Source: a phage. Taken from it: a stretch of DNA of 64,000 nt. Position numbers and translations under genes: made by a program. Position 1 is the stretch's first letter; the number at the start of each line of letters is the position of its first letter. A model generated the notes under the pieces. It ran no database searches. It had not been told where the DNA came from and worked only from the letters and a program-made list of their open reading frames with translations. Where the stretch lies: NCBI GenBank assembly GCA_021537435.1, contig GCA_021537435.1_3050.1; one strand, written 5' to 3'. Below, piece after piece: positions 5,572 through 56,399 of this stretch.

Positions 5572-6363
5572 TCACATATTATGTATAAGCACTTCGGTCT
5601 GAAATGATGCACCCTTCTTTTGCTTCCTATACATGGTTTCAAAATATTCAATTTTGAAATTATTAGAAAGGGCCCAATCTTTTAAAATATAATTATTAAT
5701 ATCGTCTGATAGATTATTAGTGATAATAAATTTAGACTTCGATTGTTTAATTTTGTCTAATAATTCTAATTCATCCTTTTCTTCCCAGCCTGAATATTTA
5801 AATTTAGTAGAAAGATACGGCGGGTCAATGAATAAATTTTTGTTTTCAAAATCCAAATCTCTGAATGATTTATTACTAAATGTAAATCGGTGCTGTCTAT
5901 TTTTAAATTCAGAAAATTTATCCTGCTGAGACTTATTAAAAGAAGTTCTGGAATACTTGGCTCTATTGGCGAAAGCCGCGTTATAATTCCCATTACTAGA
6001 AAATCGGATTAACGAACTGAATGAAAATAAATGTAGAACATAAAGATATAATCCGTTTTTGGTTTTATCGTATTCTTTTGACAGATTATAAAAAGGTGCT
6101 GAATCTTTGTCATTCAAATTAAAATCTTCAATAATTTTAACTATATCATTAATTGAAGATGATTTCATCTTTTTATACATGTCTATAAGAGGAGTATTAA
6201 TATCATTACATATAACATCTCTCTGACAATTCATAGAAAATCCAAGACCACCACAAAAAGCATCCAAAACAGGCTTATCGTCAAAGCGGTTTGAAAATTG
6301 TCTAATAAATGGCATATACTTATGTTTTGCACCTGGATATGTTATGGCAGGTAGGTCTTTCAT
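5572..6363 (-). CDS. Dam-family DNA N6-adenine methyltransferase (263 aa)
   Basis: SAM-binding motif DAFCGGLG near N-terminus and catalytic DPPY motif; region visibly AT-richer than flanking nrd genes. Confidence 0.75.
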   Translation of the reverse strand: MKDLPAITYPGAKHKYMPFIRQFSNRFDDKPVLDAFCGGLGFSMNCQRDVICNDINTPLIDMYKKMKSSSINDIVKIIEDFNLNDKDSAPFYNLSKEYDKTKNGLYLYVLHLFSFSSLIRFSSNGNYNAAFANRAKYSRTSFNKSQQDKFSEFKNRQHRFTFSNKSFRDLDFENKNLFIDPPYLSTKFKYSGWEEKDELELLDKIKQSKSKFIITNNLSDDINNYILKDWALSNNFKIEYFETMYRKQKKGASFQTEVLIHNM

Positions 6364-52354: not shown

Positions 52355-52555
52355 ATGGTACAAAAATTAATGGCACTTGTTAATGCCATAAAAGGTAATA
52401 AAAAACGTATAGCTTTTACTATTTCTGCTATGGTAGGAATTTTACTCTGGAATTTTGTTTTATCACCAATTGCTATTGCTCATGGTGTTAATATTCCAGT
52501 AATTACTCTTGATACATTCGTAGATTTAGCATTTGCTTTGGTTGGGTTAATTTAA
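52355..52555 (+). CDS. small membrane protein (66 aa) on the opposite strand
   Basis: strong RBS AAGGAGG seven nt before ATG; two hydrophobic helices. Confidence 0.5.
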   Translation: MVQKLMALVNAIKGNKKRIAFTISAMVGILLWNFVLSPIAIAHGVNIPVITLDTFVDLAFALVGLI

Positions 52556-53580
52556 ATCTTAGCATATTTAGATAGCCGCATTTTAGCCATCAACCCTTGG
52601 GCAATATTATTTTTCATATATTCCATAATTTGTTCAGGGGTTGCACCTTCCTTTCTAATCATATCATTAACATCTTTTGATTTCCAGGGAGATTTATCCC
52701 AAAACATAACCCTTTCTCCTGCATCAACTAATTTAGTCATTCGTTTAATAGTGTCAGGGTGACGAGGTTCATTATCTAAAACCCATACACGTCTATCTTT
52801 AAATGGAACAATTTCTAGGTCTAATTGACCACCCGTAATAGCTATACCATTTTCAATAAAAAGTGAATCTATAGGTCCTTCTAGAACATATACATCACCA
52901 TCTTTGACTCGTTCAACTCCATAGATTTTTGTTGCCTCAGGATAAGCTTTGATGGTGATATATTTTTGAGGAGCATCTTTCTTTAATGCACGTCCTTGAA
53001 AGGACTCGGCTTTTCCGTTAGCATTATAAATTGGAATAACAAGACGAGGCTCGGGCATTTCCTTTTTATATGTTCCTGGCGCTATACTATTAACTAATTT
53101 AGGCCATTCAGTTGTAAACCAAAGATATTTCCATTTATCCTTTGGAATACAACGAGCTTTTACATATTTTATAATTGGATGGTCTTCCGCCAGTTTATCT
53201 AATCTAATGCATGACGGAAGAGATTTAATTATTTTCTTCTCAGGTTGTTTAGGAAGTTCTTTAGGTTTTTCTACTGGACGACTTTTACCTTTTTCTTTTC
53301 TTATTTCAAAGATATATTCACGATATAAATCAGGTTCAAACTCCTTTAAATATATTCCGATTGGTGCATGATAGTTGCAGTTATAACAATGAATATTTCC
53401 TTCATTATTATCACCATAATACCATCCACGGGCTTTATTTTGGTCGGTTTTTGAATCTCCACAAACAGGGCATCTAAACCGTAATTTAAAAGTTGAACTA
53501 TTATTTACTTGTACGAATTTAGGTAAATGAGCCAATGCACGGTATGCAAACTCATTATCAATCCAAGGTATTGATGACAT
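52552..53580 (-). CDS. 61: DNA primase gp61
   Basis: 342-aa ORF; N-terminal zinc-binding CPVCGDS...CYNC; TOPRIM core. Confidence 0.9.
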   Translation of the reverse strand: MSSIPWIDNEFAYRALAHLPKFVQVNNSSTFKLRFRCPVCGDSKTDQNKARGWYYGDNNEGNIHCYNCNYHAPIGIYLKEFEPDLYREYIFEIRKEKGKSRPVEKPKELPKQPEKKIIKSLPSCIRLDKLAEDHPIIKYVKARCIPKDKWKYLWFTTEWPKLVNSIAPGTYKKEMPEPRLVIPIYNANGKAESFQGRALKKDAPQKYITIKAYPEATKIYGVERVKDGDVYVLEGPIDSLFIENGIAITGGQLDLEIVPFKDRRVWVLDNEPRHPDTIKRMTKLVDAGERVMFWDKSPWKSKDVNDMIRKEGATPEQIMEYMKNNIAQGLMAKMRLSKYAKI

Positions 53581-53748
53581 TTTTACTCTTCTTTTTCTTT
53601 AGATTCCTCTTTTTTCTTTTTAGGAATCTGTTCAGGACCTTTATTTACTACAGCACCTGACGTTGTTCCAGTGGAGATATTTTCAGGATTACCACCTGAA
53701 TCTCCAGCTACCATATCTTCTTTAATAAATTCTTTATATGTTTTCATA

Positions 53749-54105
53749 TTAACCTCTATTCATAAAAGCATTAAAAATTTGGTCATCAATAGATGGAATA
53801 GCAACCTTTTCTACATCATTTAACAAATCATTAATTTCATCAGATAGCATAACGCATGTACCTTTATTTCCTGTAATTGTTACTGCACAATTACGAACGT
53901 TTTCTTTATCAAATTTTAGGTTAATATTTTCGTAGTGAAAATCCTTTAATGCCGAATATATTTTTAAAATGAAATTGTCTTTTACTACAATAAACCCAAC
54001 TTCACTATTAAAACGTGGTTCATGGAAACTGTAATAAACCTTTTCATCTATAAAATCGTATGATATTTTTTCCATTTTTAAATATGAAAATTCAGAACTA
54101 TACAT
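53749..54105 (-). CDS. hypothetical protein (T4 61.2 position)
   Basis: 118-aa ORF between primase and sp. Confidence 0.45.
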   Translation of the reverse strand: MYSSEFSYLKMEKISYDFIDEKVYYSFHEPRFNSEVGFIVVKDNFILKIYSALKDFHYENINLKFDKENVRNCAVTITGNKGTCVMLSDEINDLLNDVEKVAIPSIDDQIFNAFMNRG

Positions 54106-54117
54106 ACTAACCTCTAA

Positions 54118-54411
54118 TTACTCACCTACCACTTCAGCGATGATATTTTTATTATTAAAGTTTTTATCGCAATACAGAACATAATTATACTGCATTACAC
54201 CACCAGACTTAAGCTGTTTTTGTACTTCAGCTTTCATTTCAGGACGGTCACGCTCAACAATATTCATAATATCTGCTTCAATTTGAGTTTCAACTTCAGT
54301 CTGATCTGCAGTCATAGACCATTCACACAAATCTTTGTCATAACCCGCCATAGCAGGCTGAGCAGCACAAGAAGATAAAGCAAAAATTGTAGCAAAGATA
54401 AATTTTTTCAT
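54118..54411 (-). CDS. sp: Spackle periplasmic protein
   Basis: 97-aa ORF with signal peptide MKKFIFATIFALSSCAAQPAMA. Confidence 0.7.
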   Translation of the reverse strand: MKKFIFATIFALSSCAAQPAMAGYDKDLCEWSMTADQTEVETQIEADIMNIVERDRPEMKAEVQKQLKSGGVMQYNYVLYCDKNFNNKNIIAEVVGE

Positions 54412-54471
54412 GATAATCTCCTCAGTAGTTTATGTTTATATAGTATCTCAATTTCCAATAAAAGTAAACAG

Positions 54472-54771
54472 CTATTTTAAAACTTCTGCATAATCACATG
54501 TTACAAACTGTTTCTCTAACTTGACGATTTTACGAAAGTATCTTTTGCATTGGCGAATCTGCCGCTTTGTAGGGCGCACAGCAAACTTAATAAATTCAAC
54601 TCGACCAAATGGAGGGCTTTCTTCTGCCGGAATATCTAATACTAATTCCCACGTATCTGCAATAAGTGCTTTGAATTGAGTATTTTTCCTGACGTTATAC
54701 GGTGTAGGTTTAAATAAAACGATATGCATATTATCCTCGGCAATCCACTTCGCATACTTTCTTGTCATCAA
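54472..54771 (-). CDS. hypothetical basic protein (T4 61.4 position)
   Basis: 99-aa ORF overlapping dmd. Confidence 0.45.
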   Translation of the reverse strand: MMTRKYAKWIAEDNMHIVLFKPTPYNVRKNTQFKALIADTWELVLDIPAEESPPFGRVEFIKFAVRPTKRQIRQCKRYFRKIVKLEKQFVTCDYAEVLK

Positions 54772-54913
54772 TGAAAGCTTTAACTAGTGCTTTATTAACT
54801 TCAGCATATTGATTAGTAGCCCAGTGAACGTCATCTTTCATCATTGTGATTTCTTTAGTAAACATGCTTTCATTCTTAAACCACCCCATAAAAACTACCT
54901 TTACTAATTCCAT
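54731..54913 (-). CDS. dmd: Dmd, inhibitor of host RnlA/LsoA toxins
   Basis: 60-aa ORF MELVKVVFMGWFKNESMFTKEITMMKDDVHWATNQYAEVNKALVKAFIDDKKVCEVDCRG. Confidence 0.8.
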   Translation of the reverse strand: MELVKVVFMGWFKNESMFTKEITMMKDDVHWATNQYAEVNKALVKAFIDDKKVCEVDCRG

Positions 54914-54942
54914 AACAATCTCCTCATTTAACCAACAAGACT

Positions 54943-54971
54943 ATTATACCATAGTCTTGTCGGCTTGTAAA
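54943..54971 (-). promoter_or_regulatory. early promoter upstream of dmd
   Basis: rc TTTACA, 17 nt, TATAAT. Confidence 0.5.
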
Positions 54972-56399
54972 CTAAAATTTTAATTCATTCGCCAAAGCAT
55001 CTAACTGAGCTCGAGCGGATTCGTTTCTTTGATAGCGATTCTGTTCAGCCTGAATCTGCTGTGAACCTGCTACTTCGTTCACTTCGGTTGGAGTAGAATC
55101 TTGTTCAATTTCTACCCATTTCTGATTTCCTTTTTGAACACCCATCAAAAACTTATTCCATTTATTCTTATCACCATATCGTGATTTGATTTGCTTAATG
55201 AGTTGTTGTTCAGCAGCTGCTAGCTCCTCGGTTTCAATGACCGCAAGCATAAAATCGGCTGTTGCTGGAAGACCGGCAGATTCTGCAATATCGCTCATGT
55301 TAACATCAGAAGAATCCCAAGCTTGCTTACCAACCTGTGCTGCAGTCCAAAGAACAGTTTCAGTTTCAACAGCCAAAGCACGCAATTCTTCTGCGATGGC
55401 TTTAACAGTTGTGTAACTATTTTCTGAATAAACTCTGATGCGGCAAGATTTACAAATACCTAGATAGTCAACAATAATGATTGTTGGAACAAAATTCTTC
55501 TTGAGCTTCAATTCGTTTAAAAGAGATCGAAATGTATTAGCGTCTGCTCCACCAGTAGGATATTGCTTAACGATTAAACGGCCGAGAGTAGATTTCTCAC
55601 GCCATTTTTCCATCTTTCCTTTATATTCAGCGTAAGAAATATGCCCATCATCAATGTCATCAAGAGAAACATCAAGCATATTAGCATCAATACGCTTAGC
55701 ACAAACTTCTTCTGCCATTTCCATGGAAATGTAAAGAACGTTATGCCCGAGCTGCAAATAATCTGCTGCCAATGAACACAATCCTAATGACTTACCGACG
55801 TTAACACCAGCCATTAAAACGTTCAGTGTTCCAGTTTCAGCTCCGCCTTTAGTAATTTTATTTAGAATTTTGAGTTTAAATGGAACCTTACGAGCTTTAT
55901 TCATATAAGATAGCCAACGTGCTTCGTAGTCATCCATCCAATCATGACCAACGTAACTATCAAATGAAATTGATAATGCTTGGCGCATGATGTCAGGAAT
56001 AGCACCGACATCCGGCATTTTCTTATTTCGTTTTTCCGGAGGAAGCTCAGCATTAGTTTGAATTTCAATTATTTTAGACGTAGCATTAAACATCGCCCTT
56101 TGCTGAACATATTTTTCTGTTTCTTTTACTAACCAGCTGTGGTCTTCTGGAGAATCGGCTAGTTTCGAAATAAGTGTTTTTACACCAGAATATTCTGTTT
56201 CAGTAAATGAACTATTTTCTAATGCAACATTTAACGCATTAATAGATGGAACGCTATGGTATTCATTAACATGAGATTTAATTAATTTGAATGTATTTTT
56301 AGCTGGACCACTTTCAAAATATTCTGAATCCATATATGGCCAAACTTTTGAAAAATAAGCTTGATCAAATATGAGATGAGAAAGAATAATTTCTACCAC
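54972..56399 (-). CDS. 41: replicative DNA helicase gp41 (DnaB family)
   Basis: 475-aa ORF; Walker A GVNVGKS. Confidence 0.9.
   Translation of the reverse strand: MVEIILSHLIFDQAYFSKVWPYMDSEYFESGPAKNTFKLIKSHVNEYHSVPSINALNVALENSSFTETEYSGVKTLISKLADSPEDHSWLVKETEKYVQQRAMFNATSKIIEIQTNAELPPEKRNKKMPDVGAIPDIMRQALSISFDSYVGHDWMDDYEARWLSYMNKARKVPFKLKILNKITKGGAETGTLNVLMAGVNVGKSLGLCSLAADYLQLGHNVLYISMEMAEEVCAKRIDANMLDVSLDDIDDGHISYAEYKGKMEKWREKSTLGRLIVKQYPTGGADANTFRSLLNELKLKKNFVPTIIIVDYLGICKSCRIRVYSENSYTTVKAIAEELRALAVETETVLWTAAQVGKQAWDSSDVNMSDIAESAGLPATADFMLAVIETEELAAAEQQLIKQIKSRYGDKNKWNKFLMGVQKGNQKWVEIEQDSTPTEVNEVAGSQQIQAEQNRYQRNESARAQLDALANELKF

Follow-up and report, generated by a model that had tools for sequence, protein, structure and literature searches.

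A probable T2-type configuration of the Tequatrovirus anti-TA island with a half-length paralogue of adfA

The island and its gene layout

In phage T4, helicase gene 41 and primase gene 61 are separated by the small genes dmd-tifA(61.4)-sp-adfA(61.2)-61.1, and the region between these genes has already been named a possible "anti-TA island" (TA, toxin-antitoxin), with its remaining genes as candidates (Srikant et al. 2022, PMC9391042). Here we describe the corresponding interval, positions 53581-54913, in a 64,000-nt stretch of DNA from a Tequatrovirus (T4-like phage), which we call the window, and in particular a gene for a 118-amino-acid (aa) protein related to AdfA. In T4, Dmd directly inhibits the HEPN RNase toxins RnlA and LsoA (PMC8266594, PMC9391042). 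Gene 61.4 now bears the name tifA and encodes an 85-aa inhibitor of the type III toxin ToxN; deletion of the start codon kills the activity (PMC9391042). TifA binds both ToxN and RNA, trapping ToxN in a ribonucleoprotein (PMC10853763). Spackle, encoded by sp, is a periplasmic inhibitor of the gp5 tail-spike lysozyme and acts in superinfection exclusion, not in anti-defence (PMC7677548). AdfA, the product of T4 61.2, is anti-DarT factor A, which binds DarT1 and in which residue 164 decides binding.

The interval very likely represents the T2-type configuration of the published island, with two early transcription units between 41 and 61. It is like the T4 island in its position between these two genes, in strand, in gene order and in having an early promoter, and Dmd, TifA, Sp and 61.1 are 96-99% identical to their T4 counterparts. 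Unlike in T4, the 61.2 (adfA) slot is empty and a gene for a 118-aa protein absent from T4, a paralogue of AdfA, adjoins 61.1. Five genes, all on the minus strand, lie between primase 61 and helicase 41; they and the repeat discussed below are as follows.

dmd (61.5): 54731-54913, minus strand, 60 aa, assigned by Pfam Dmd and identity to T4
tifA (61.4): 54472-54729, minus strand, 85 aa, pI 9.8, assigned by DUF7279 and identity to T4
sp (61.3): 54118-54411, minus strand, 97 aa with a signal peptide, assigned by Pfam T4_Spackle and identity to T4
short AdfA-like gene: 53749-54105, minus strand, 118 aa, acidic, RB32ORF033c type, assigned by Pfam AdfA and phrog_4122
repeat unit of ~55 nt: 53747-53801, minus strand, defined by DNA alignment of the window, T4, RB18 and PhiZZ23 and by codon comparison
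61.1: 53583-53747, minus strand, 54 aa, assigned by identity to T4 and phrog_1823

The genes are tightly packed, with a stop-to-start gap of 1 base for dmd/tifA and for the 118-aa open reading frame (ORF)/61.1 and of 2 bases for 61.1/61, and a Shine-Dalgarno (SD) sequence precedes every start in the interval. The surrounding 1.7-kb stretch has 97.9% nucleotide identity to Shigella phage sb3 (pSs-1 is likewise close, at ~98%) and is at least 90% identical in 510 phage records. This conservation, together with the match of four of the five products to curated families, shows that the ORFs are genuine, far beyond chance. None of the five proteins had a match in NCBIfam, and no Rfam family matched in the interval.

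A first-pass annotation, made from the letters alone, had placed four ORFs here. All four are present on the minus strand; the fifth gene, 61.1, had been missed, and what was taken for a 99-aa ORF is really 85 aa. Its view of the neighbourhood as an anti-defence cluster is upheld by the published role of TifA as a ToxN inhibitor (PMC9391042, PMC10853763) and by the term "anti-TA island" being in print (PMC9391042).

Relationship of the 118-aa gene to adfA

The 118-aa protein scores above the gathering cut-off of the Pfam family AdfA (PF23813; 33.3 bits against 27, E = 4.1e-8), but the match covers only profile positions 113-211 of 211 and so falls short of the full, two-module length. In PHROGs, it matched its own 118-aa family, phrog_4122, over the full length, with the 210-aa AdfA family, phrog_3781, as a weak second match. 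Direct comparison with AdfA (208 aa) shows identity only in the last 14 residues, SIDDQIFNAFMNRG, and weak similarity over the remainder; the tail common to the two proteins, DDQIFNAFMNRG, is invariant. When profiles of the short family and the C-terminal half of AdfA were aligned with hhalign, tail included, the match reached 97.8% probability (E = 8e-13), and a hidden Markov model (HMM) built from short proteins only matched AdfA residues 113-210 (independent E-value, iE, 1e-7 to 1e-12).

In phages RB18 and PhiZZ23 the two genes stand in tandem (sp, 61.2, short gene, 61.1), and the RB18 record annotates the short gene as "some similarity to gp61.2; RB32ORF033c". Because these two phages hold the short gene separately, between adfA and 61.1, sequence comparison identifies the 118-aa gene as a half-length paralogue of 61.2 that matches the C-terminal module of AdfA, rather than as an orthologue. 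The first-pass annotation had taken its two unassigned ORFs as anti-defence candidates and pointed to T4 61.2 and 61.4 for comparison, calling the correspondence uncertain. The basic ORF is indeed 61.4 (84 of 85 residues); for the 118-aa ORF, orthology to 61.2 does not hold and is replaced by a half-length paralogy above the Pfam AdfA cut-off.

The short gene has its own SD sequence, its own ATG and ~20 N-terminal residues, forming the first strand, that have no counterpart in AdfA. Its product is 94% identical to the T2 copy, and full-length short homologues at 47% identity occur in the genus Gaprivervirus (VR7, TH15, TH41). The Gaprivervirus island of VR7 (L005, 1-2800) is larger, with two 61.4/TifA-like genes in addition to a 119-aa short AdfA-like gene. 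An HMM search run exhaustively over 1.84 billion representatives recovered only 7 clusters at 50% identity, all of them phage-like. There are therefore no bacterial relatives among them, and an origin of the protein as an antitoxin cannot be argued. A sequence search of the PDB with the short protein gave no match.

Four-way DNA alignment of the window, T4, RB18 and PhiZZ23 distinguishes three states of the locus.

RB18-type state: sp, adfA, short gene, 61.1
T4-type state: sp, adfA, 61.1
window/T2-type state: sp, short gene, 61.1

The ~55-nt repeat consists of the last 14 codons, the stop, and the SD sequence and ATG of the next gene, and in two-gene phages it ends both adfA and the short gene. 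From its sequence and placement, the repeat is predicted to be a substrate for cassette loss or gain; recombination between its two copies would yield the T4 state. The window-type junction between sp and the short gene is found in ~139 phage records, including T2, whereas the short gene is kept intact in ~290 records and adfA in 487. The two-gene state, at ~150 records, was counted by subtraction only, and the census is approximate.

We used AlphaFold2 (AF2) models to compare the architectures of the two proteins. The short protein is modelled as five strands, a helix, a short strand, a helix, a flexible linker and a terminal helix, with a mean predicted local distance difference test score (pLDDT) of 83.6. 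In the model of an AdfA 96% identical to that of T4 (mean pLDDT 73), the five-strand-plus-helix pattern occurs twice and is followed by the terminal helix. The HMM of short proteins also matches AdfA residues 33-74, weakly and in the same register (iE 0.0015-0.03). These secondary-structure patterns and the weak HMM match suggest that AdfA may be a tandem fusion of two modules of which the short protein represents one. Internal duplication of AdfA could not be established by sequence alone and was rejected on that basis, since hhalign of the N-terminal against the C-terminal half gave only a 12-residue motif at a probability of 7%; what keeps the tandem-module idea alive is only the second, weak HMM domain together with the recurring secondary-structure pattern. 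A Foldseek search of BFVD with the short-protein model returned family members only.

Both proteins end in the conserved tail. Its core, DDQIFNAFM, does not vary among proteins of 118, 120, 125, 145 and 208-216 aa, although their bodies are scarcely recognisable as related, and both models place the tail beyond a flexible linker, as a helix of its own predicted with low confidence. Between genera, the tail codons differ synonymously (GAT/GAC, CAA/CAG, GCT/GCA/GCC, TTT/TTC, AGA/CGA). The tail is therefore conserved as protein, and recombination alone does not account for its constancy. In VR7, a 145-aa protein, VR7ORF039c, shares only this tail, DDQIFNAFMKRD.

Possible function of the short protein

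We tentatively propose that the 118-aa gene encodes a module that works by itself and belongs to a small, polymorphic phage family, in which a variable five-strand-plus-helix body is combined with an unchanging DDQIFNAFM helix for docking. Two of these modules, fused in tandem, would make up AdfA. The short form would act by neutralising some host defence toxin (possibly a different DarT, or in connection with T2-type DarTG2 resistance), and the ~55-nt repeat would let phages swap or stack specificities. Like AdfA, the short protein would be a non-enzymatic binder, with specificity residing in the body and a role shared by all family members in the invariant C-terminal helix. That the short protein has an anti-defence role at all is a reasonable possibility, at somewhat less than even chances. 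Two-hybrid data show that RB69 AdfA carrying R164H interacts with DarT1, and this variant also rescues the phage; the substitution maps to the helix after strand 5.

Several observations weigh against this proposal. At the position equivalent to R164 of RB69 and to the His of T4, the MAFFT register puts Asn72 of the short protein, and a shift of one residue would put Cys73, in place of the His required for DarT1 binding. T2 has been described as a phage that "naturally lacks an adfA homolog", blastp matches having been kept only if they exceeded 75% of full length (PMC11825919). Although published as being without an adfA homologue, T2 carries the short gene, and T2 ΔadfN cannot plaque on DarTG1 cells (PMC11825919). 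Since this mutant is DarTG1-sensitive while carrying a copy 94% identical to that of the window, the T2 short protein fails to neutralise that DarT1 when expressed at its native level. The target is probably not the E. coli DarT1 assayed to date. When the last 16 residues were removed, the hhalign match to AdfA was reduced to 20% probability (E ~1e-3, 32-34% identity over ~60 residues), centred on the motif VGxIxVKDNxI, and Pfam AdfA membership of the 118-aa protein leans heavily on the tail. At the level of the whole locus, Spackle and 61.1 are not known anti-defence genes, and the term "island" fits only part of the cluster.

Published data on DarTG2 also bear on the short gene. T2 and T4 lacking adfN stay DarTG2-resistant, and so does T4 ΔadfA ΔadfN (PMC11825919). 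As the T4 double mutant is resistant in a phage that has no short gene, the short gene is not a general explanation of DarTG2 resistance.

It is possible, if doubtful, that the 118-aa protein is more narrowly a functional anti-DarT factor, sharing the mechanism of AdfA but differing in specificity and directed at some DarT homologue distinct from the E. coli DarT1 assayed so far. The authors of PMC11825919 suggest that AdfA alleles lacking activity are adapted to different DarT homologues, and a protein that passes the Pfam AdfA gathering score and retains the module with the specificity helix would fit such a role, although the similarity of its body to AdfA is weak. The persistence of DarTG2 resistance in T2 and T4 without adfN implies some further factor, but T4 ΔadfA ΔadfN is resistant without any short gene to provide it, and T2 ΔadfN is fully sensitive to DarTG1 despite having one.

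An unlikely alternative is that the long and short AdfA-like proteins are not primarily toxin binders, that the DDQIFNAFM helix docks onto a common phage or host machine which the bodies modulate, and that neutralisation of DarT1 is a side activity. A tail that is invariant across proteins of 118 to 216 aa with diverged bodies, with synonymous codon changes between genera, and that is modelled as a separate helix behind a flexible linker would be expected of a docking element, and deletion of adfA is without a DarTG1 phenotype in T4. However, AdfA of RB69 carrying R164H does bind DarT1 in the two-hybrid assay and rescues the phage, and the tail matched no known docking motif, which leaves the docking explanation speculative.

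Finally, it is very improbable that the 118-aa gene is a decayed remnant of adfA, left by a 5' deletion as a C-terminal half without a function of its own: the alignment with only the C-terminal half of AdfA, the identity of the last 14 residues and the lack of a phenotype of the adfA deletion in T4 (DarTG1) would agree with decay, but the body outside the tail is only ~33% identical to AdfA, a poor fit to recent truncation, intact adfA coexists in tandem in RB18 and PhiZZ23, the gene has its own SD sequence, ATG and ~20 N-terminal residues absent from AdfA, full-length homologues occur at 47% identity in Gaprivervirus, the gene is intact in ~290 phage records, and the model is a confident complete-domain fold (pLDDT 83.6).

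The cluster itself is already known, as Dmd, TifA, AdfA, Spackle and the island concept have all been published, and the new points are modest: a cassette with three states, a probable modular build of AdfA and a conserved tail. Nevertheless, ~290 T-even phage records, including that of T2, carry a short AdfA-like gene that is missed by homology filters requiring >75% of full length, and this gene is a concrete and cheap candidate for anti-defence screens. The role of the conserved C-terminal helix could explain how the whole AdfA family works.

Transcription units, neighbouring genes and known systems

The elements that bound the interval and the sites from which its genes may be transcribed are listed here.

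helicase 41: 54972-56399, minus strand, 475 aa, gp41 99.6% identical to that of T4
predicted early sigma-70-type promoter of dmd-tifA: 54943-54971, minus strand, TTTACA, 17 nt and TG-TATAAT, between gene 41 and dmd
tifA-sp spacer: 54412-54471, minus strand, a weaker promoter-like site and the sp Shine-Dalgarno sequence, read from the sequence
primase 61: 52552-53580, minus strand, 342 aa, gp61 98% identical to that of T4

In the promoter scan, the dmd-tifA promoter had 11 of 12 consensus matches and an extended -10. Its position agrees with the published early promoter upstream of dmd that drives dmd-tifA (PMC9391042). The promoter is embedded in a 15-bp hairpin (ΔG = -22.1 kcal/mol, z = -6.2), an arrangement that resembles the terminator/promoter composites of PeSL (promoter-early stem-loop) type. 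A scan of the interval for intrinsic terminators found none. The tifA-sp spacer contains a weaker early-promoter-like site, GTTTACT followed by TACTAT, that lies under the threshold of the promoter scan, and "a promoter downstream of tifA" is mentioned in PMC9391042. The spacer site is probably the start of a transcript of sp, the 118-aa gene, 61.1 and 61.

We envisage that the strong early promoter of the first unit, dmd-tifA, would yield two stoichiometric toxin inhibitors, with Dmd plugging the HEPN RNases RnlA and LsoA and TifA binding ToxN with RNA so that the toxin is trapped in an inactive ribonucleoprotein. The second unit would begin with sp, which would block the gp5 lysozyme of superinfecting phages, and continue with the short AdfA paralogue and 61.1.

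In the region 54925-54985 (minus strand), the -10 of the window is a perfect TG-TATAAT, whereas T4, T2, RB18, PhiZZ23, ECP52 and vB_SsoM_113 have TATAGT. The 61-nt region has no identical record among 50,697 phage genomes (the best is 98.4% identical), and the corresponding counts in IMG/VR are 0 against 4. The G-to-A change in the -10 also closes the last pair, next to the loop, of the 15-bp hairpin. In T4, TifA suffices when toxIN is chromosomal but becomes limiting when toxIN is on a plasmid. Since escape in the plasmid case is limited by tifA dosage, the TATAAT variant could be a natural up-promoter allele.

TifA of the window is identical to T4 gp61.4 in 84 of 85 residues and, as in T4, is encoded directly downstream of dmd; it matches Pfam DUF7279 with 72.7 bits (cut-off 24.5, E = 2.3e-20). 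Its ATG at 54729 sits 1 base after the dmd stop with GAGGA upstream, and the 85-aa form is the one annotated in T4, T2, RB18 and others. A TTG start that would give 99 aa (54472-54771) was rejected, as it overlaps dmd by 41 nt, lacks an SD sequence and disagrees with all annotated homologues, which are 85 aa long. Position 41 of TifA tunes the strength of inhibition, F being weaker than S or H, and PMC10853763 describes a central basic cluster of K55, R56 and R59 as needed for RNA binding. The window protein carries F41, K55, R56 and R59 and should therefore behave like T4 TifA, as far as its sequence allows this to be predicted. A PDB sequence search with TifA gave no match.

The names Dmd and periplasmic Spackle given in the first-pass annotation are both supported. 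Dmd matches its Pfam family (PF17587) over the full length (151.3 bits against a cut-off of 27, E = 9.2e-45), shares 58 of 60 residues with T4 Dmd and matches "Antitoxin Dmd" in the PDB (5hy3_B, 4e-36). On this similarity we take it to be the orthologue of the T4 antitoxin, with RnlA/LsoA inhibition carried over from T4. Sp has a signal peptide, is identical to its T4 counterpart in 95 of 97 residues, and matches Pfam T4_Spackle (PF25676) with 152 bits (cut-off 27, E = 6.8e-45) and "Protein spackle" in the PDB (6x6o/7cn6; 2e-61 for 6x6o_A). The product of 61.1 had no Pfam or NCBIfam match; it is identical to T4 gp61.1 in 52 of 54 residues, belongs to phrog_1823 (7e-34), and is a conserved, Gly/Ser/Thr-rich protein with the tail KKKKEESKEKEE. 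Its counterpart is 92 aa long in RB69 (annotated gp61.1) and 155 aa long in the Mosigvirus vB_VIPECOMC06, where it falls in phrog_2086, a family that matches residues 8-53 of the window protein.

Other parts of the neighbourhood vary among T4-like phages. In RB69 (L006, 3155-4656), imm and imm.1 lie between sp and dmd, and a 61.4/tifA homologue lies between the imm genes and dmd; in vB_VIPECOMC06, the position between sp and dmd is taken by a hypothetical gene and its neighbour, whose annotation is "superinfection immunity protein". The superinfection-exclusion genes are thus adjacent to one another in these phages. In the window, T4 dam is absent from its T4 position between genes 56 and 61, where a 66-aa plus-strand ORF of the RB32ORF030w type (52355-52555) overlaps the end of gene 61, and a 263-aa ORF at 5572-6363 (minus strand) is only 35% identical to T4 Dam.

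Compared with the nearest described proteins, those of the dmd-tifA unit and Spackle depart little. The window Dmd is near-identical over its full length to the crystallised Dmd (PDB 5HY3), from which it differs by Q30H and T34N, and Spackle is likewise near-identical over its full length to PDB 6X6O and 7CN6, differing by A13S, in the signal peptide, and K53E. TifA resembles T4 TifA in its 85-aa length, in F41 and K55/R56/R59 and in sharing an operon with dmd, and differs only by I83V. The promoter of the unit has TATAAT as its -10, unlike the TATAGT of T4. The short protein is like AdfA (T4 gp61.2, RB69 ORF034; PF23813) in its C-terminal five-strand-plus-helix module, the motif VGxIxVKDNxI, the C-terminal SIDDQIFNAFMNRG, its locus and the lack of an enzymatic motif; unlike AdfA, it is half as long, has one predicted module instead of two, and has a body only ~33% identical. 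With the PeSL cassettes of T4-like phages (PMC2839356, PMC4122927), the locus shares an early promoter fused to a strong stem-loop and variation through gain or loss of small ORFs between repeats, but here the repeat shared by adfA and the short gene comprises the 3' end of a coding sequence and the translation-initiation region of the next gene rather than a promoter/terminator element.

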